DNA of 40,857 nucleotides from a virus (lineage: Duplodnaviria > Caudoviricetes). Each line of letters opens with the position of its first letter. Position 1 is the first letter of the stretch. Under the pieces are notes generated by a model. The model was not told the origin of the DNA. It worked only from the letters and a program-made list of their open reading frames with translations, and searched no databases. The position numbers were made by a program, and so were the translations under genes. The stretch lies in IMG/VR virus record IMGVR_UViG_3300017780_003951, positions 1-40,857 of that record. One strand, given 5' to 3'. Shown here piece by piece: positions 2,603 through 17,511 of this stretch.

Positions 2603-3529
2603 TTAAAAAAGTGTGTTTTTAATTATATCCCCTTTACCGTTCCAAAATATAGACTCAAATACTTTCTTTTTATTATTAGTAGCTGATAAACTACTTCGGT
2701 GTGAAAACATTTCTATCTTTTCAAAAGGTGCATCGTACTCGCTTAAATAGGCTGGGTATTCTAAATCACTAAACCATTCATAAAAAGCATCGTGATTAAA
2801 ACCACCCTCTTTATATTCACCCGTTCCTTTGTATGGAATATCGCAATAAATTATCGGATTACTTCCTTGTATTAAAACTTTTTCGTAACTTGTGTTATTT
2901 GTCTGTAGGTTCTGTAGGTTCTGTAGGTTCTGTAGGTTCTGTAGGCGTGTTAAGTGTTCTACTAATTCTAAATTTTGAACATCGCATCTTTTTTCAGTTA
3001 TTTTTTTAACGTGGCTACAAAAAGCTAATCTTCGTTTTTGAATATCTTTTATTTTAAATATACCTTCCATATTTAAACCTAACTTAAACATTGAGGTTTC
3101 GTCTAAATTAACAATTAATTCGTGTGCAAGTCTTTTAAATTCTTCAATATCAGCACCATACAAATATGAATTTTGACTATTACCAAAACTCCAGCAACTC
3201 ATAACAAAACCAGAAAACCAATCCGCCTCGCTATTACTTTTATTTATTTGCTTTTTAAACTCTTCACGTGTTACCCATTCGTAAAATTTAGGTTCTAATT
3301 CTTTATTGTTTTTAATATACTCTACTAAACTATAAATATGTTTATTTAATTCGTTGTAGTGTACGTTAAAACGATAATCTCTTACTGCAGTAAAACTAAT
3401 TGAACCGCCACCACCAAATAAATCGTAAAAGTCTGTTGTTTTTTCGTGTCTGCTTGTAATTTTTTCTAATATTTGAGAAGCTAATTTTCTTTTACTTCCC
3501 ATATACGGTATTCCTAAATTTTGTTTCAT
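2603..3529 (-). CDS. DNA adenine methyltransferase (Dam/D12 class)
   Basis: PYMGSK, DLFGGGGS (SAM-binding motif I), YNELN, YCDIPY (DPPY-like motif IV). Confidence 0.85.
   Translation of the reverse strand: MKQNLGIPYMGSKRKLASQILEKITSRHEKTTDFYDLFGGGGSISFTAVRDYRFNVHYNELNKHIYSLVEYIKNNKELEPKFYEWVTREEFKKQINKSNSEADWFSGFVMSCWSFGNSQNSYLYGADIEEFKRLAHELIVNLDETSMFKLGLNMEGIFKIKDIQKRRLAFCSHVKKITEKRCDVQNLELVEHLTRLQNLQNLQNLQNLQTNNTSYEKVLIQGSNPIIYCDIPYKGTGEYKEGGFNHDAFYEWFSDLEYPAYLSEYDAPFEKIEMFSHRSSLSATNNKKKVFESIFWNGKGDIIKNTLF
2902..2945. repeat. 9-bp tandem repeat (TCTGTAGGT), 4 full copies plus 8 nt, inside the MTase, encoding LQN repeats
   Basis: Read directly. Confidence 0.95.
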
Positions 3530-10804: not shown

Positions 10805-11065
10805 TTAGTTATATTTTAAGTTACAATATATTTTACACTCGTATTCAAATCCATAATCTTCATCTATTTCAGTTTCAAAACCTAAACATTGAATTTTTTG
10901 TATTGTTTTTTTTAATTTAGAAACAGATAATTGAATAGAAAAACTTTCTAATCCATCAATAATAGAAGTTAAATCAGATACTTTTTTTGTAATGATATTT
11001 TTTGTACCATTTTCCGACTGTATAGCAGTTAGCGTTTTTCCGTATTTAATAGAAGTCGTTTTCAT
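10805..11065 (-). CDS. Hypothetical protein (likely start MKTTSIK at 11065)
   Basis: Track start 11092 overlaps the promoter box; internal ATG has typical context. Confidence 0.65.
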   Translation of the reverse strand: MKTTSIKYGKTLTAIQSENGTKNIITKKVSDLTSIIDGLESFSIQLSVSKLKKTIQKIQCLGFETEIDEDYGFEYECKIYCNLKYN

Positions 11066-11089
11066 AATTAGTTCGTTATTATTATGTAG

Positions 11090-11195
11090 CAAAGATACAC
11101 ATTAATTTGAAACAAACAAACTTTTGCGTAAAAAAAACAAAAAATAATCTTTTTTAAACTTTTGTTTGTTTATTAATAAAAAAGCATTACCTTTG
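11090..11195. promoter_or_regulatory. Divergent promoter pair
   Basis: Minus TATCTTTG 11090-11097; plus TACCTTTG 11188-11195; each preceded by TTTGTTTGTTT and ATTAAT; sits at the coding-strand switch. Confidence 0.75.
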
Positions 11196-11221
11196 AAAAA
11201 TAAATTTAAAACTAAATAATT

Positions 11222-11524
11222 ATGAAATTTAAAGGAACAAAAGGGAAATGGTATTTAACAGAAGTAGATTCTGAGATACAAATAAATTGCGACACACCTA
11301 ATTGGAATGTCTGTAATATTACAACAAATTACGAACAAGACAAAGCCAACGCCTTACTAATTTCAAAAGCACCAGAAATTCTTGAAGAGCATATAAAAGA
11401 TTTAGAACTTTTACAAAAAGTGGCCGATCAATTAGATGAATTAGGCGGTTTTTTATGGGATGACGTAATGGAAAAAATAGCGGTGAAAAAACAATTAATA
11501 CAAGAAGCAACTAAAATCAATTAA
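11222..11524 (+). CDS. Hypothetical phage protein (KGTKGKW...ANALLISKAPE type)
   Basis: First gene after the plus-strand promoter. Confidence 0.8.
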   Translation: MKFKGTKGKWYLTEVDSEIQINCDTPNWNVCNITTNYEQDKANALLISKAPEILEEHIKDLELLQKVADQLDELGGFLWDDVMEKIAVKKQLIQEATKIN

Positions 11525-11526
11525 TT

Positions 11527-11706
11527 ATGTGTACATTTTGCGGAAGAAATCACAATCAAAAACCTAAGACAAAAACAATTTATATTTATGATGGTAAAGA
11601 CAATGAGTTAGGTAGTATTGAAGTCAATGTTGATACAAGAGTTAGAGATTATCAAAAAGGATTGTATCTAAAGTATCATAGCTGGCAATACACAAAAGAG
11701 AATTAA
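11527..11706 (+). CDS. Hypothetical protein, 59 aa (MCTFCGRNH...)
   Basis: Hand-translated; fills gap exactly. Confidence 0.6.
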   Translation: MCTFCGRNHNQKPKTKTIYIYDGKDNELGSIEVNVDTRVRDYQKGLYLKYHSWQYTKEN

Positions 11707-11724
11707 CAATTAAACTATAACAAA

Positions 11725-12228
11725 ATGAAAAATTATGAAATTACAGAAGAACAGATTAAACAACTAGCAAAAGGAAACGCAAAAGTAAAAGAATGGTTTC
11801 CAGATGTTTTTGAAACAATAATAAAATCAGGCGAGTTTTGGTTTCATAGTACAGGATGTTTAGTATTGGTGTTTGGAGTAACCAAAGATAATGGAGGTAC
11901 TGTAAAATGCAAACATATTAATAATGAAGAACATTTTGCTTTTCACGGTATTGATTGTATGTATAGAAAAGCCACCGATTCAGAAGTATTAGAAGCTTTG
12001 AAAAATGAAGCTATTAAAAGAGGGTTTAAAGGTGGGGCTTTTTATATACATACTGGAGTAGGTATTATTAGACAAGTGTTCGGAGATAATTTTATTTATA
12101 ATTGTACAAAACAAGAACTAAGTATTAACGGATTTTGTATTTTAGAAAAAGGCAAATGGATTGCTGAAATAATTAAAACCTACACCAAAGAAGAAGCAGA
12201 GAAATTATTAAACGCTAAAATCATATAA
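11725..12228 (+). CDS. Hypothetical protein, 167 aa
   Basis: ORF track; C-terminal TKEEAEKLLNAKII. Confidence 0.8.
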   Translation: MKNYEITEEQIKQLAKGNAKVKEWFPDVFETIIKSGEFWFHSTGCLVLVFGVTKDNGGTVKCKHINNEEHFAFHGIDCMYRKATDSEVLEALKNEAIKRGFKGGAFYIHTGVGIIRQVFGDNFIYNCTKQELSINGFCILEKGKWIAEIIKTYTKEEAEKLLNAKII

Positions 12229-12229
12229 C

Positions 12230-12460
12230 ATGAAAGAATTAAAAGAACTACACGCGCAAATTAAAGACAAAAAAACCTTTAACAAAAACTTATCCGAAAA
12301 ATTATTTTTAAGTGAAGTAACAGTTGAAAACGCTTTTAAAACAAGTGGTAAATTTAAATCCAAACATTTGGAAGTTGTTAATCATTGGTTAAATGTAGAA
12401 CTACGTCTACAACAAAAAGCACTTGAAATGTGGGTAAAAGATTGGGAGATTGTTAATTAA
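12230..12460 (+). CDS. Hypothetical protein, 76 aa (possibly DNA-binding)
   Basis: ORF track; function speculative. Confidence 0.65.
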   Translation: MKELKELHAQIKDKKTFNKNLSEKLFLSEVTVENAFKTSGKFKSKHLEVVNHWLNVELRLQQKALEMWVKDWEIVN

Positions 12461-12475
12461 AACGAAAATGTTATT

Positions 12476-12583
12476 ATGAAAAGATTTTTTAAATGGGAAA
12501 GTAAACCCAACGGGAATTGTCCTGTACAGTCAAATGGGTGTTTTCTGTTTCTTTTGAAACCGAAATCAAAGTATATACGCTAA
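12476..12583 (+). CDS. 35-aa ORF ending at the first array core; possibly a remnant
   Basis: MKRFFKWESKPNGNCPVQ...KYIR; stop TAA lies within CTAAC 12580-12584. Confidence 0.4.
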   Translation: MKRFFKWESKPNGNCPVQSNGCFLFLLKPKSKYIR

Positions 12584-12708
12584 CGGCTCTCGGCTTTGCG
12601 AGGTTGCGTAGAATAAAAAATAACCATTACAAACACACAAATACTTTAAAATTATGAATAAAGTTTTAGAAAATCCCGAAAGCAGCAATGCGATAAAGCC
12701 GATGTTAG
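12580..12708. repeat. attC-like hairpin site 1 (129 bp)
   Basis: CTAAC-GGCTC-TCGGCTTT...TTGC / GCAA...AAAGCCGA-T-GTTAG. Confidence 0.8.
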
Positions 12709-12965
12709 GCGATGTGCCTTTCACTGATGTAGATGGCAAACTAATTTTTATTAATGATATAATTGAACAAACCAATTTCAATGGAGAGCAATATTTAGCA
12801 AGATACCAAGTAGTAGTTGATCCAGCAGATAATGAAGTTTGTCTTTTAATGCTTTATGGAAACGATAAAGCAATGAACCTTTTTAATAGCTATAAATATT
12901 CAGCTTTTGGAACTGTAATAAATGGCAAACTTCGTAAAGGTCGAGTTGTCGGGCATATCGCCTAA
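12654..12965 (+). CDS. Cassette 1 hypothetical protein (YopX-like motif DVDGKLIFINDII)
   Basis: Starts in loop of site 1; stop inside CTAAC of site 2. Confidence 0.75.
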   Translation: MNKVLENPESSNAIKPMLGDVPFTDVDGKLIFINDIIEQTNFNGEQYLARYQVVVDPADNEVCLLMLYGNDKAMNLFNSYKYSAFGTVINGKLRKGRVVGHIA

Positions 12966-13089
12966 CGTCAAAGCGTTGGCGATGTTGGGGATTAGAAAGT
13001 ACAAAAGCTCAAATAAAAACAAATGATAGTAGAAAGCACAAAAGCTCAAATTAAGCACGGAAGCCCCAATATTGCTAATGCATTGTTGG
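12962..13089. repeat. attC-like hairpin site 2 (128 bp)
   Basis: GCGTTGGCGATGTTGGGG 12973-12990 pairs with CCCCAATATTGCTAATGC 13064-13081 (4 G.T); right core GTTGG. Confidence 0.85.
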
Positions 13090-14174
13090 GTGCAGCTCCT
13101 GTCCACAAATTTCCTTATAACTGGAATTTAAAAGATGCAAACTTTACAAAAGATAAAGGCAAAGTATTTAGTTGTTTTGCTTGTGGTGGTGGTTCAACAA
13201 TGGGTTATAAATTGGCTGGATTTGATGTAATAGGACACAGTGATATTGATAAGAAAATGATTGAAGTTTATAAAATAAATCATAATCCTAAATATTCATT
13301 TTTAGAAAGCATTACAACTTTTGCTAAAAGAAAAGATTTGCCAAAAGAACTTTATGAACTTGATATTTTAGATGGTTCGCCACCTTGTAGCAGTTTTTCA
13401 ATGGCTGGAAATAGAGAAAAAGACTGGGGCAAAGAAAAAGTATTTAGAGAAGGTCAAGAATTACAAGTTTTAGACACATTATTCTTTGATTTTATTGATT
13501 TAGCAAAAGAATTACAACCGAAAGTAGTAGTAGCTGAAAACGTAAAAGGATTGCTATTAGGAGAAGCGAAAGAATACGTTATTAAGATTTACAAAGAGTT
13601 TGAAAAAGCTGGTTACTATTGCCAACACTTTTTGCTTGATGCTTCAAAAATGGGTGTGCCACAACGTAGAGAAAGAGTTTTCTTTATTGCATTAAGAAAA
13701 GATATAGCACAACCGTTTTTATATTATGCAGATATGTTTACAGAATTGCCAAAAATTGATATGCAATTTAACGAACCAACAATCACATTAAACGACATTA
13801 AAGACAATAGTGCTAATGATGAAAAATGCGAAATGACTGATGTTAAAAGAAACATCTGGAATAATAGAATTAATGGAGATAGTGATTTTAGCTGCACATT
13901 AGGGCGAATTGAAAACAGACCAAATTCAATGTTTAATAATAATTATTTATATGGTAACAAGCCACTAAATACTATTTCATCAAAAAAGAATGATGTGCTT
14001 TTTGATGAACCAAGACATTGTAATTTTAACGAAAACACATCCGGACAAACATATCCAAAAGATTATAACTTTTTAAATATGCCTTATTTGTATTTAATAG
14101 GAATGAGTGTGCCACCTGTAATGATGGCTCAAATTTCAACTAAAATATACGAACAATGGCTGTCGAAGTTGTAG
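13023..14174 (+). CDS. Cassette 2: DNA (cytosine-5)-methyltransferase
   Basis: FACGGG (I), GSPPC (IV), ENV (VI), QRRERVF (VIII), IGMSVPP (X). Confidence 0.93.
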   Translation: MIVESTKAQIKHGSPNIANALLGAAPVHKFPYNWNLKDANFTKDKGKVFSCFACGGGSTMGYKLAGFDVIGHSDIDKKMIEVYKINHNPKYSFLESITTFAKRKDLPKELYELDILDGSPPCSSFSMAGNREKDWGKEKVFREGQELQVLDTLFFDFIDLAKELQPKVVVAENVKGLLLGEAKEYVIKIYKEFEKAGYYCQHFLLDASKMGVPQRRERVFFIALRKDIAQPFLYYADMFTELPKIDMQFNEPTITLNDIKDNSANDEKCEMTDVKRNIWNNRINGDSDFSCTLGRIENRPNSMFNNNYLYGNKPLNTISSKKNDVLFDEPRHCNFNENTSGQTYPKDYNFLNMPYLYLIGMSVPPVMMAQISTKIYEQWLSKL

Positions 14175-14195
14175 ATGCGTCTTTTGGAATTGCAC

Positions 14196-14326
14196 CTAAC
14201 GTTGTATTATTGTCGTCAGGTGGCGACAAAATAAAAACTAATTTTTAAATTTAAGACAAATTATGAAAGCACAAAACAATATTTCAATTAAAGACCAAAC
14301 CGCCACTTGCGACAATAATGTGTTAG
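14196..14326. repeat. attC-like hairpin site 3 (131 bp)
   Basis: ATTATTGTCG-T-CAGGTGGCG 14206-14225 pairs with CGCCACTTG-CGACAATAAT 14301-14319; single bulged T. Confidence 0.85.
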
Positions 14327-14652
14327 TGGCTGGCATAATTTCATACGAAGGTCGTCAATGGTTAGCGGAAGAATATTCAGAAGAAATTGGAAACGGTGCT
14401 TGGATGGCAAGTCCAATTTATCATACCGATAATGGGCTAGAAGTTCGCCCTGCAGGTGGCAATTGGTGTTTTAAAAGTCGCGGAGCAGTTCCATCTATTT
14501 TAGAACCTAAAAAGCAAAAAGAAGTTTACGAAAGTTGGATTAAACATTTGCAAAAAACAATCAACTTTTTAAGAGGTAAATTTCCAGAAGTTGAATTGGA
14601 TTATAAAAATAAAATTTCGTTTTGGCAAAGTTTGGCAGATGCTTGCCACTAA
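14263..14652 (+). CDS. Cassette 3 hypothetical protein, 129 aa
   Basis: Starts in loop of site 3; stop inside next CTAAC. Confidence 0.75.
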   Translation: MKAQNNISIKDQTATCDNNVLVAGIISYEGRQWLAEEYSEEIGNGAWMASPIYHTDNGLEVRPAGGNWCFKSRGAVPSILEPKKQKEVYESWIKHLQKTINFLRGKFPEVELDYKNKISFWQSLADACH

Positions 14653-14777
14653 CGTTAAAGCATAACAGTAGTTTAGGGAAAGTAAGCCTAATCTATCGGA
14701 GTTAAAACCAAAGATTCCAAGTACAAAAATAATTATAAATCCAGCCTAATGCCTAAATTACTGTTATGCAGTGTTAG
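14649..14777. repeat. attC-like hairpin site 4 (129 bp)
   Basis: GCATAACAGTAGTTTAGG 14660-14677 pairs with CCTAAATTACTGTTATGC 14752-14769. Confidence 0.85.
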
Positions 14778-15114
14778 GGAATCGGTTACATATTTACAAG
14801 CTATGAAAATCACAGAAAAACAATACCAAAAAGCATTGCTTGTAATTAAGCAATACGAAACTCAACAAAAACCTAAAGATATTTTTGAATTATTAAGACA
14901 AGGTTATGATGCGGAAGTGATAAAATACATTATAGAAAAATGCGATTTTGAAATTGACGAAACGTTTTTTCATAGAGATATTGCTTACGGTCTTGAAGTA
15001 GTTATTGAAAGAAAAAAAGCAAACGAACCAATTGCGATTGGAGCTATTGAATTTTTAAAAGCAATAGAAAAACAAGATCGTTTAACTCATCAAGATTATC
15101 TTGATTTTGGCTGA
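14749..15114 (+). CDS. Cassette 4 hypothetical protein (internal MKITEKQY start also plausible)
   Basis: ORF track; start uncertain. Confidence 0.7.
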   Translation: MPKLLLCSVRESVTYLQAMKITEKQYQKALLVIKQYETQQKPKDIFELLRQGYDAEVIKYIIEKCDFEIDETFFHRDIAYGLEVVIERKKANEPIAIGAIEFLKAIEKQDRLTHQDYLDFG

Positions 15115-15131
15115 TTTTCTATAACTGTTCC

Positions 15132-15262
15132 CTAACGCCCCGCAGCTACAAGATGAACTGGATAAAACAAGCCGTGTCACTTCCGAGTTGCACAATCAAT
15201 ACTGAAACAAAACAATTAATAAATTAAAAACTAATACCCGTTTATATTGTAACTGCTGTTAG
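15132..15262. repeat. attC-like hairpin site 5 (131 bp)
   Basis: GCAGCTACAAGATGAACTGG 15142-15161 pairs imperfectly with CCCGTTTATATTGTAACTGC 15237-15256. Confidence 0.8.
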
Positions 15263-15290
15263 CAGACGTTGTGGGTATTTAAAACAAAAC

Positions 15291-15497
15291 GTGATTATGA
15301 AAAATTATTTAGCATTTTATGGAATGGTTTATTACCCATCAGGCGGAATGGATGACTTATTAGGGGATTTTGATACATTAGAGGAAGCTATCGAATCTAT
15401 TACAAAAAAAAATAATGAATCCGATGGAGGTAGCTGGAGTTACTGTTGGGCAAATGTTTATAGTTTACAAGATAGAATTGAAGTTTACACAACTTAA
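15291..15497 (+). CDS. Cassette 5 hypothetical protein (YYPSGGMDD motif)
   Basis: ORF track; entirely within cassette ends. Confidence 0.75.
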   Translation: MIMKNYLAFYGMVYYPSGGMDDLLGDFDTLEEAIESITKKNNESDGGSWSYCWANVYSLQDRIEVYTT

Positions 15498-15529
15498 TTT
15501 CTTCTCAAAACGATTAGTAACAATGTTTG

Positions 15530-15658
15530 CTAACGTTCGACGGCTATACGATGGTTGGGATAAGATAGCCGTAATTTTTCCGATTAACACAAATTATCCC
15601 GACACAAAACAGACTTTAAATTAAACAATTAACCCAACTATTGTATAACCGTTGTTAG
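15530..15658. repeat. attC-like hairpin site 6 (129 bp)
   Basis: ACGGCTATACGATGGTTGGG 15540-15559 pairs with CCCAACTATTGTATAACCGT 15633-15652. Confidence 0.85.
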
Positions 15659-15683
15659 CAGTAGTTATAATACTCAAATTATT

Positions 15684-15944
15684 ATGTACACAAAAGAACA
15701 ATTAAACAAATTAGGTTTTAAAGAAGTAAAAGACCAAGAAACAGGAATTATTGATTTTGTAAATAAAGTTACAAGCAATGTTCATTTAGTTTTAAGCCCA
15801 ATGTTAGAAGAATTATTTATTTGGATTTTAGAAGATGGTGGCGATGAAGATTCAGATGGAACAAAATTAATTATTGATACTTCTGATTTGGAGCAAGCAA
15901 TTGAATTATGTAAGATTATTGTCGGTGTTGACGATGGCTTCTAA
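15684..15944 (+). CDS. Cassette 6 acidic hypothetical protein, 86 aa
   Basis: ORF track; within cassette ends. Confidence 0.75.
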   Translation: MYTKEQLNKLGFKEVKDQETGIIDFVNKVTSNVHLVLSPMLEELFIWILEDGGDEDSDGTKLIIDTSDLEQAIELCKIIVGVDDGF

Positions 15945-15953
15945 TAATTACTG

Positions 15954-16140
15954 CTAACTCATTTATTGACGAATAAAAAGTAATACTTATTATACAAAAC
16001 CACGTACTATTAAATTTTCAGACAATACGCTTAAAAAAGAATATTGTCCGTTTTAGAATTAAATATAACTCAATATAATAAATAGAAATTATGAAAACAG
16101 AAAATACCGAAAACGAGGCATTGAACAAAAACGATGTTAG
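15954..16140. repeat. Atypical junction 7 (CTAACTC half-site; arms do not pair; 187 bp)
   Basis: CTAAC 15954 and GTTAG 16136 present but no matching arms seen. Confidence 0.6.
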
Positions 16141-16300
16141 CGGTTCGTTACTTTCGGATTTAAACTACTGGAAGCAAAGATGTTTATTAGCTGAAAAATG
16201 TTTAGAAGAAAGTCCTAATGACCCAGACATAACAAGTGAGCAAATTAAAGCTCATAATTCTTACCACAAGTTCATTAGTCACTACGGCAATGACCGCTAA
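16091..16300 (+). CDS. Cassette 7 hypothetical protein, 69 aa
   Basis: Reads through GTTAG core (NDVSGS); stop inside CTAAC. Confidence 0.75.
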   Translation: MKTENTENEALNKNDVSGSLLSDLNYWKQRCLLAEKCLEESPNDPDITSEQIKAHNSYHKFISHYGNDR

Positions 16301-16370
16301 CGTTCCCACGATAGGGGCTGTTTGCCTATGCGGTTAGTAGATTACGCCACTAGCTACAAACGTGTGCTAG
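16297..16370. repeat. Short, degenerate hairpin site 8 (74 bp; right core GCTAG)
   Basis: CTAAC-GTTCC-CACG ... CGTG-T-GCTAG; additional GTTAGTAG at 16333. Confidence 0.6.
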
Positions 16371-16418
16371 TAGCTGGACGGATATTAAAGATAAATTAAC
16401 TTATAAAAACTAAATAAA

Positions 16419-16598
16419 ATGGATAAGGAACTAAAAATTACAGATAGACAAATTGCACACCTAAGAGAAGAAATTAGCAGAGTGCAAAGACAAGTACAAT
16501 TAATCAAACAAGGCAAAACTCATTTAGGAGATAAAAATCGAATGGATATTGCTGTTGATTGTTGTAAAGAAATTGACCGTGTATTATGTGAATTGTAG
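16419..16598 (+). CDS. Cassette 8 hypothetical coiled-coil protein, 59 aa (MDKELKITDRQ...VLCEL)
   Basis: Hand-translated; fits between cassette ends 16366 and 16611. Confidence 0.7.
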   Translation: MDKELKITDRQIAHLREEISRVQRQVQLIKQGKTHLGDKNRMDIAVDCCKEIDRVLCEL

Positions 16599-16696
16599 TC
16601 TTGCTACTAACTCACAAATATACACAATACCATTTTCAACTATCTAATTTAGGTATTGCGTAAAAATAAATATTAACAATTAAATAAATAGAAATT

Positions 16697-16894
16697 ATGA
16701 AAACACACACAATTGACCAAGAAGCATTAAGAGAATGGCAACAAGAAGAAAAAGTAATTTTTGCAAGTAGCACAAAAGAAGACAAACAATTGCATTGTAC
16801 TTTAAGAGGCAGTTATGAGGTTTGGCATAAAAAAGAAATAGTTTTAGAAACTATGCAGGCAGGAAAAGCAGTTGAAAAATACAACTCAATATAA
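16697..16894 (+). CDS. Hypothetical protein, 65 aa (outside the array)
   Basis: ORF track; last plus-strand gene. Confidence 0.75.
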   Translation: MKTHTIDQEALREWQQEEKVIFASSTKEDKQLHCTLRGSYEVWHKKEIVLETMQAGKAVEKYNSI

Positions 16895-16896
16895 CA

Positions 16897-16930
16897 TAAA
16901 AAAACCCTAACATTACGCTAGGGTTTTTTT
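16897..16930. terminator. Bidirectional terminator between convergent blocks
   Basis: AAAAAAACCCTA-ACATTACGC-TAGGGTTTTTTT. Confidence 0.8.
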
Positions 16931-17316
16931 ATATAATTCACAATCATAACAATTACAAACATGATTATTAAAAGCCAAAATAGCTTTGTAGAAAGACTTT
17001 CTATTAGTTGCGTGTAGTCTTTTTCTTTTTCTTTAACTTCTTGCTTTAAATCGGTGTTTTTGGAAGTACTGTCTTTATAAATGATCCTTTCACTTGTATT
17101 GGTAAAAGTTGCCTTTGTATTATAATATTCTTTGCCGTTTATTAAAATTGGTTTTTCTAAATTAATAGGCTCTAAACTCCAGCCTTCTGAAAATTTAGTA
17201 GCATCTATATTTACAATTGAAGTGCTGTCTGTTTTTAATTCCGTTTCTGTATTGGTTTTTTTAACCGTTGCACACTCGATAAAAAATAAAGGGATTATTA
17301 AAATAAGTTTTTTCAT
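16918..17316 (-). CDS. Putative lipoprotein with C-terminal TM helix (unimolecular-spanin-like topology)
   Basis: MKKLILIIPLFFIE-C (atypical lipobox); C-terminal LFWLLIIMFVIVMIV; follows endolysin. Confidence 0.6.
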   Translation of the reverse strand: MKKLILIIPLFFIECATVKKTNTETELKTDSTSIVNIDATKFSEGWSLEPINLEKPILINGKEYYNTKATFTNTSERIIYKDSTSKNTDLKQEVKEKEKDYTQLIESLSTKLFWLLIIMFVIVMIVNYIKKP

Positions 17317-17385
17317 TGTTTTTTACCAAAGATAAGAAATAAGTTGTATATTTGATTTTCATAATTAGTTTTTTTTTAGTTAATT

Positions 17386-17419
17386 AAATCCGTAGTATTA
17401 TTTATTACGGATTTTTTTT
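17386..17419 (+). terminator. Hairpin with T-run
   Basis: AAATCCGTA...TACGGATTTTTTTT. Confidence 0.55.
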
Positions 17420-17478
17420 GTATATTAGCTATTATCTTTGTAACGCATATGAATAAATTGTTTGTTCCACGACAAACA

Positions 17479-17511
17479 AAAAACCCCTACTCAAACGAAT
17501 AGGGGTTTTTT
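17479..17511. terminator. Terminator after endolysin (bidirectional shape)
   Basis: AAAAACCCCTA-CTCAAACGAA-TAGGGGTTTTTT. Confidence 0.75.

Follow-up and report, generated by a model that had tools for sequence, protein, structure and literature searches.

How does a phage that encodes no recombinase come to carry a row of genes laid out like exchangeable cassettes? The question is raised by IMG/VR record IMGVR_UViG_3300017780_003951, a freshwater phage whose entire virus record, 40,857 nt long, is the window analysed here. CheckV rates the record as 100% complete, yet it is linear and without end repeats. Among its 62 open reading frames (ORFs), PHROGs and Pfam recognize terminase, portal, capsid, tape measure, primase, helicase, single-stranded DNA-binding protein (SSB), exonuclease and lysis genes, and the cultured-phage DNA matches of the window are mostly Flavobacterium phages. 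The array in question occupies positions 12580-16628 and comprises six intact hairpin sites of 128–131 nt each, together with two cassettes (7 and 8) that look decayed. We hold it to be quite probable that this is an orphan integron-like array of Bacteroidota, whose units of one hairpin and one gene are exchanged at TAAC cores and are likely moved in trans by a tyrosine recombinase without the I2 insertion of integron integrases (IntI).

The initial annotation, made from the sequence alone, had described eight consecutive genes here as cassettes with an inverted repeat each. All 16 motifs that it quoted are in place, and six of the units are intact, but cassette 7 retains a lone right arm and the arms at the site of cassette 8 are unpaired. 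The features of the array are listed below; the limits of the units follow the unit rule derived from breakpoints in related phages.

12580..12708, plus strand: hairpin site of cassette 1, containing the start codon of gene 1 (ORF start 12654); 82 bits, in the training set of the covariance model
12584..12965, plus strand: cassette 1 unit (inferred limits, crossover taken at TAA/C), hairpin and 103-aa ORF 12654-12965 without a family match
12962..13089, plus strand: hairpin site of cassette 2, containing the methyltransferase start codon
12966..14199, plus strand: cassette 2 unit, hairpin and C5-cytosine DNA methyltransferase (ORF 13023-14174, 383 aa, PF00145, E 4e-47)
14196..14326, plus strand: hairpin site of cassette 3, fold z -4.6
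14200..14652, plus strand: cassette 3 unit, hairpin and 129-aa ORF 14263-14652
14649..14777, plus strand: hairpin site of cassette 4, covariance-model match
14653..15135, plus strand: cassette 4 unit, hairpin and ORF 14749-15114
15132..15262, plus strand: hairpin site of cassette 5, covariance-model match
15136..15533, plus strand: cassette 5 unit, hairpin and 68-aa ORF 15291-15497 (phrog_1411, function not known)
15530..15658, plus strand: hairpin site of cassette 6, covariance-model match
15534..15957, plus strand: cassette 6 unit, hairpin and 86-aa ORF 15684-15944
15955..15990, minus strand: first attI-like non-hairpin end, closing cassettes 1-6 (by-eye likeness to array ends of FCL-2, L230 and L238)
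16091..16300, plus strand: cassette 7 remnant, which keeps a right arm, an outer stem and a 69-aa ORF but has no left arm
16297..16370, plus strand: short site of 74 nt whose arms do not pair
16301..16610, plus strand: cassette 8 unit with 59-aa ORF 16419-16598; the same ends hold unrelated ORFs in other phages
16608..16628, minus strand: second attI-like end, 18/21 nt identical to the fixed site adjoining the host recombinase and in register at the core

The hairpin finder returned six sites in 12400-16700, against a mean of 0.04 (maximum 1) per shuffle in 100 shuffles, and none on either strand of the remainder of the window; a generic repeat finder did not pick up the sites. Contigs from an independent run (X2) cover 11000-13005, 13604-16327 and 16299-17500 without any differing letter, and because they are identical over most of the region the array is no assembly artefact. 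A single contig skip, from 16414 to 16591 with a 21-nt side, fits cassette 8 ends with other content. In the spacer 15954-16140 the attI-like end is followed by the lone right arm of cassette 7, with no good left-arm partner upstream; full hairpins precede ends of this type in three other loci (L179, L184 and L220). The site at 16297-16370 is likely a chimera of two short hairpins, its left half resembling by eye a site of locus L216 and its right half a short site of Lillamyvirus.

Each site runs from TAAC through ~5 nt, an arm of ~18 bp, an AT-rich loop, the partner arm and 1-3 nt to GTTA. Among 39 phage sites only TAACG and GTT are invariant, and the mean column identity is 56%. In their alignment 85.5% of cells are paired, compared with 64% in shuffled and at most 46% in slid versions, and 152 cells are compensatory versus 54 in shuffles, although these pair counts use a structure derived from the same sequences. 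The commonest arm offsets in viral sites are 5 nt on the left and 1 nt on the right (176/286), and 143 of the 176 sites with this layout have a C–A mismatch at arm position 5. The site can be read as a pair of boxes that lie 6 bp from each other and flank a 4-nt bulge. RYYYAAC...GTTRRRY cores had been assigned to the array; a conserved TAACG...GTT is indeed there, but the strict boxes of attC sites fit just 2 of 9 ends and 2 of 8 starts. The attC spacer is likewise missing: according to the accessible parts of PMC2727003, attC has a central spacer unpaired on both sides and 2-3 extrahelical bases, and the bulge found here is one-sided in a tally that left single bulges further out uncounted. 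Four ORFs do end on the TAA of CTAAC (12583, 12965, 14652 and 16300), as first reported, yet the core serves as a stop codon in only 56 of 215 viral sites and is thus weak evidence.

Since G–T pairs outnumber C–A pairs on the same site strand in phages (441:70 in arms, 308:20 in outer stems) and in the chromosomal arrays of hosts described below (108:23 in arms, 25:1 in outer stems), the folding strand can be identified; it is the coding strand in phages only, and the non-coding one in hosts. The self-matching gene ends proposed from the sequence also held: in 8/8 cases the start pairs better with the end of its own gene than with the one beyond the spacer, an assignment that ranks first among 40,320 permutations, and these ends of 13-16 nt exceed 7 bp. 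Own-end pairing recurs in 232 of 250 viral sites (14-21% in swapped controls). When the site is modelled in the circle form, in which a unit's own ends meet, it folds better than the array form in 6/6 cases (cassettes 1-6), with -31.9 versus -22.0 kcal/mol for cassette 3 and just -18.5 versus -17.8 for cassette 2.

The mobile unit was delimited in the array regions of 17 cultured Baltic Flavobacterium phages (Muminvirus, Lillamyvirus and Hattifnattvirus). The 16 distinct clean indels can each be placed to within 5-12 nt, and every one of these ambiguity windows includes TAAC at a gene 3' end; the extra DNA is a hairpin and the gene after it, and seven of the indels end at one fixed non-hairpin terminus. 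A 439-nt unit occupies different positions in lillamy9-6 and lillamy9-7. Across breakpoints of all kinds, 90 of 101 distinct ones fall in TAAC windows, which make up 2.1% of the array length. Junction homology amounts to 3-12 nt and always includes AAC, as expected of an attC-type crossover within the AAC/GTT triplet of one box, the exact base being more than the sequence can fix. This gain, loss and relocation at the cores bears out the earlier proposal of a shuffled accessory-gene platform in a Bacteroidota phage, with breakpoints of relatives at the cores. In the relative G001 an array sits at the same position with different genes.

Cassettes 2, 3, 4 and 6 of the window recur in other phages beside other neighbours. 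Among 22 loci examined, 12 copies are of the cassette type, and all 12 stop 3-6 nt after the downstream TAAC: five of cassette 2, one of cassette 3 (L259), one of cassette 4 (L262), and five of cassette 6, the last out of seven homologous loci and ending 3 nt after TAAC.

In phages a unit therefore begins with its hairpin and continues into the gene that follows, an order opposite to that of classical cassettes. The initial annotation had made each hairpin part of the gene upstream; the breakpoints reject this classical polarity, on which folding energies alone were undecided, and assign the hairpin to the downstream gene, with the TAAC at the gene 3' end as the crossover core. At 73 of 79 viral sites (from 90 loci, 82 of them distinct, found by the phage-site pattern, with 3 edge sites dropped) the folding strand is also the strand of the downstream gene, whereas 31 of 32 recombinase-linked host sites (5 edge sites dropped) have that gene on the other strand. 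Accordingly, the attC arrangement of a hairpin 3' of its gene that folds on the bottom strand is found in the host arrays and is absent from the window and the viruses. The methyltransferase of cassette 2 has no in-frame ATG between its hairpin site and the conserved domain; the nearest lies 27 codons up, and a start inside the upstream hairpin fits only the hairpin-then-gene polarity. An ORF start was counted inside 116 of 222 long viral hairpins where an ATG frame runs at least 40 codons past GTTA, and the right arm would thus encode the N-termini of many unrelated phage proteins, e.g., at 13023-13103 in the window.

Where could a recombinase come from? The phage was said to encode no integrase, and every search agrees: none was found among the 62 ORFs of the window (PHROGs, Pfam) or in a six-frame search of the window for tyrosine or serine recombinases (PF00589, PF00239), and a profile built on the array-linked recombinase found nothing either, its best E value being 0.07. 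The window thus has no integrase in cis. PF00589 and PF00239 searches found none in G001 either. The compared Muminvirus and Lillamyvirus records do not occur among the 23 phage records with the array-linked recombinase, and tooticki6-1 and G159 lack PF00589 too.

A covariance model trained on the 39 phage sites gave 19-34 matches per genome in four of five Bacteroidota genomes, a search that the initial annotation had proposed, and no match in the fifth, a Chryseobacterium (G006). The same sites form chromosomal arrays in Flavobacteriaceae, there with classical gene polarity. The suggestion of a tyrosine recombinase next to host copies was also correct: two arrays of Flavobacterium covae share their starting point, beside a divergent tyrosine recombinase and a fixed sequence that ends in GTTA, and differ in the cassettes that follow, whose cargo includes methyltransferases, a restriction endonuclease and an FRG protein. 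Of 151 genomes sampled from the F. covae family, 49 encode this array-linked recombinase. Among 40 recombinase loci fetched out of 55 matches, 21 have site matches, and all 37 site matches lie on one side of the recombinase with the folding strand pointing at it. Five of 90 viral loci also carry the enzyme (265-268 aa), 50-60 nt after a non-hairpin attI-like end. The same sites are linked to one recombinase family in chromosomes and phages. The cultured Polaribacter phages Freya_10 and Freya_9 differ by one 307-nt hairpin-plus-gene unit at the non-hairpin end by the recombinase, sharing only AAC; this junction comes from direct comparison, the hairpin finder having found no site in Freya or Ingeline.

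The array-linked recombinase consists of PF13495 and PF00589 domains and keeps the catalytic R-K-H-R-H-Y residues intact in an alignment of 10. It scores 179-223 bits with the TIGR02249 integron integrase model, below the cut-off of 265, and lower with the XerC and XerD models; databases annotate the phage form as XerD or tyrosine recombinase. Its I2 region spans 25 residues versus 68 in IntI4 (2a3v), with a well-aligned C-terminus, and the IntI-specific I2 insertion is therefore absent. A single-sequence AlphaFold2 model of the host enzyme (pLDDT 39.9) was not used. Two host layouts were seen among loci L129-L168: a clade 56-60% identical to the F. covae enzyme has its array upstream and divergent, and a clade 34-46% identical has it downstream, which we take to recall 'reverse integrons'.

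The attI-like ends were absent from the initial annotation. Searched against the window, the host fixed-site 21-mer has a single match, 16608-16628 on the minus strand, with 3 mismatches (0.01 expected). Together with the seven indels at a fixed terminus and the Freya insertion, this match indicates by sequence a fixed non-hairpin entry site, which would act as attI does. A third F. covae copy of the attI-like site (L069:2676, in G004 near 2.036 Mb) ends a cassette, with no PF00589 match listed nearby. The element TAnnTTTG, the Bacteroidetes promoter motif, occurs inside the attI-like end of the window (16615-16622, minus strand) and points antisense into the array; in the host attI-like site the element is oriented in sense with the cassettes it faces. 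In one phage array the cassette adjoining the attI-like end (L187:4155-4604) has its gene in the host orientation and may have been acquired from a host. At least 12 sites lie on a phage-like contig of a Chitinophagales metagenome-assembled genome (L040:651-13660); most of the cassettes there carry methyltransferases, and some appear duplicated.

From the observed sites, covarying arms, unit limits, breakpoints and insertion at a fixed non-hairpin end, we infer the following course of events. In single-stranded form, the coding strand would fold into a TAAC/GTTA core duplex, a 4-nt bulge and a second box with the C–A mismatch. A recombinase, likely borrowed from a host or a co-infecting phage, would cut at AA/C, as IntI does on the attC bottom strand, and release hairpin and gene as a circle, in which the gene's own 13-16 nt ends would lengthen the stem. 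With the circle site more stable than the hybrid array site, capture would be favoured over loss. Insertion of the circle would then take place at one of the attI-like ends (15955, 16608) or at a further TAAC core. Because the genes run opposite to those of host cassettes, the AT-rich loop could supply a start codon; transcription of the whole row would come from a distal phage promoter.

Several results weigh against this account, besides the circularity in the pair counts. Run X2 has the units in the order of the window, which means that this particular array was not seen to shuffle, and the run data, as contigs only, held no circle or excision joint at a core; two of the eight units look decayed. 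Eleven of the 101 breakpoints lie outside the TAAC class (four at 8-9 nt past it, one at GTTA, three in hairpins and three elsewhere), and indels and breakpoints alike are counted as distinct junctions, not independent events, some of them summing others. The left ends of the 12 recurring copies are looser, with six at the upstream TAAC, two at GTTA and four inside the site; hairpins are therefore swapped by another route too. Own-end pairing occurs in just 16 of 44 host sites (controls 2-11%), and three of the six native hairpins of the window fold no better than shuffles, at z 0.0 to -0.7, compared with -2.1 to -4.6 for the other three. Finally, 19 of the 40 recombinase loci have no site match, with a hairpin finder that misses diverged host sites.

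The strongest competitor, which we nevertheless regard as unlikely, is a frozen relic, that is, an array built in an ancestor with a recombinase and now changed only by homologous exchange with co-infecting phages. The unchanged order in X2, the decay of cassettes 7 and 8 and the lack of a recombinase in this phage and in G001 all agree with it. Yet cultured phages that lack this recombinase show single-unit indels and relocation between otherwise identical neighbours, and arm pairing is maintained by compensatory change.

Less credible still are sites that merely serve as homology patches for phage recombination proteins, with no site-specific enzyme, like the PeSL elements of T4-type phages. 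Genes for a YqaJ-like exonuclease and SSB are encoded near the array, such a route is needed to explain the hairpin swaps, the chimeric site and the unrelated ORFs in shared ends, and PeSL exchange yields mini-circles, as described in the part of PMC2839356 at hand. However, the sites average 56% column identity, junction homology is just 3-12 nt and always covers AAC, insertions occur at a non-hairpin end, and the sites keep a fixed polarity toward the one recombinase family they are linked to. Nor does each unit bear the strong promoter and terminator stem-loop of a PeSL: scans for sigma70-type promoters and for terminators were at chance (32 vs 29.8 and 3 vs 2.3), and the only plus-strand TAnnTTTG inside the array lies within a gene. 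Homology-driven shuffling of the PeSL kind is probably real as a secondary process.

It is very improbable that the hairpins and the paired gene ends serve the mRNA, acting in its processing, termination or translational control, and are mobile only incidentally: the coding strand is the better-folding one in phages and the 116 hairpins contain an ORF start, but the host G–T bias is on the non-coding strand, breakpoints at TAAC are not predicted by an RNA function, and an Rfam search of the window (E<=1) gave three chance matches, none at a site. Equally implausible is a classical cluster of attC sites lacking an integron integrase (CALIN), with ordinary cassettes from a host integron and a true IntI: the AAC/GTT core, the G after AAC as in most attC sites (accessible parts of PMC2727003) and the CALIN label given to a similar array of Polaribacter phage P12002L (Qi 2023, PMC9892861, in the parts consulted) speak for it, and the inverted unit polarity, the one-sided bulge with 5/1 offsets, an enzyme without I2 and, in the same parts of PMC9892861, the failure of P12002L attC1, a hairpin of this type, to recombine with IntI1 speak against it.

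The preferred reading of an integron-like array exchanged at TAAC cores leaves the origin of the cassettes to be considered. Among 81 homologues of the cassette 2 methyltransferase, 72 are free genes and nine are cassettes in three kinds of ends; the free genes have their own ATG 2-8 codons ahead of the domain. On a quick tree (81/82 rows kept, 65 distinct) the free or cassette state changes four times, at least three by well-supported branches, and the clade of the window nests among free genes. One kind of end holds two enzyme lineages, and allele swapping inside existing ends therefore explains part of these changes. Unrelated interiors were found within the ends of cassettes 6, 7 and 8 in four, three and three viral loci, respectively, and ends like those of cassette 6 also occur in host cassettes with the gene reversed; a strict end-reuse search found nothing for cassettes 1, 2, 4 and 5. 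Cassettes are likely often made by replacing the ORF within ready-made ends, an ordinary phage gene being swapped in. By eye, the non-cassette ORF 11222-11524 begins like a 95-aa ORF inside cassette 8-type ends in tooticki6-1, which suggests another pair of free and cassette genes. The methyltransferase cargo likely counters host restriction.

The array sits inside the sole plus-strand gene run, 11222-16894, ahead of which lies one further feature:

11188..11195, plus strand: TAnnTTTG element, candidate promoter of the gene run 11222-16894, by consensus match only

Two such elements point apart at 11090-11195, where minus- and plus-strand gene runs meet, and likely form a divergent early promoter pair. 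At the other side, where gene runs converge, a perfect inverted repeat at 16893-16936 is likely a bidirectional terminator. Elsewhere on the minus strand, 2603-3529, which lies outside the array, encodes a second DNA methyltransferase (adenine, PF02086) and has a short 9-nt tandem repeat near 2900-2945, and 1358-2440 encodes a 360-aa protein with long hexapeptide-like beta-solenoid repeats (PF18836, phrog_7964), the DNA of which is a degenerate tandem array.

Our literature search, thin on subscription papers, returned no description of this cassette system. The main texts of the Baltic and North Sea phage papers contain 0 occurrences of 'integron' or 'cassette', and the consulted part of a paper on miniature inverted-repeat transposable elements (PMC11602168) does not treat these sites. 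The array thus likely belongs to an apparently undescribed integron-like system of Flavobacterium-type hosts. Whether it also represents a second, I2-less integron lineage of Bacteroidota, missed by standard tools, is to us an even question; virulent phages with an attI-like dock and reversed cassettes would then use the host enzyme in trans, shuffle anti-restriction genes and drop ordinary genes into ready-made ends.

How integron cassettes are made is an open question. If true, the system would show cassettes in the making and would be a present-day model of the stage that preceded the acquisition of I2. The host arrays hold restriction-type genes and the phage arrays methyltransferases, an arms race fought with one common machine. 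Cultured isolates that differ by single units exist, so the system is testable. The I2 helix is held, in the accessible part of PMC7790495, to enable integrases to act on folded single strands; an I2-less enzyme doing so would therefore be a direct test. The 49 of 151 F. covae-family genomes with this recombinase contrast with the near-absence of complete integrons in Bacteroidetes by IntegronFinder 2.0, with one in Salinibacter (PMC9024848, part seen).

Among known systems, the closest phage counterparts are the 17 phage CALINs of Qi 2023, which, in the parts of PMC9892861 consulted, are integrase-less arrays in virulent phages with DNA methyltransferase cassettes. The attC1 of P12002L resembles the sites described here in its short 5/1-type hairpin on the coding strand before a methyltransferase and in its self-matching ends; attC2, which did recombine with IntI1, stands by our reading at the array end, where attI-like sites lie here. 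There, both P12002L sites are read as divergent classical attC, the inverse polarity, the attI-like end and an I2-less enzyme are not described, and no Flavobacterium phage is named in the text or one supplement (0 occurrences). By CALIN definition, a site cluster without an integrase nearby is present in the window, and the sites are attC-like but fail three attC features. The PeSL cassettes of T4-type phages are likewise hairpin-bounded accessory genes in variable regions that are shuffled and circularised; PeSLs are promoter-terminator repeats exchanged between similar copies (part of PMC2839356 seen), whereas the present sites are divergent, share one crossover core and have a dedicated recombinase and an attI-like site. 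For the 'Integron-like' subgroup of tyrosine recombinases (Smyshlyaev et al. 2021), the accessible part of PMC8138268 assigns no cassette system to members without the insertion.

With sedentary chromosomal integrons the system shares tandem one-gene units, the AAC/GTT crossover core, a single folding strand, self-matching unit ends, a fixed non-hairpin insertion site by a tyrosine recombinase with growth at that end and, in the host arrays, restriction-modification and other defence-type genes. It differs from them in a recombinase without I2 that scores below the TIGR02249 cut-off, in sites with a one-sided 4-nt bulge, a conserved C–A mismatch, a ~90-nt loop and a 13-16 nt outer stem, and in a phage gene on the folding strand, after its hairpin and often starting inside it. 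The term integron cassettes, used at the outset, thus holds in the sense of integron-like, although the site geometry is not that of classical attC and the linked enzyme is not IntI; by its sequence features the region appears to work like an integron but to fall outside IntI membership, and the array qualifies as a real, well-delimited orphan of an integron-like system that fails several IntI and attC features.

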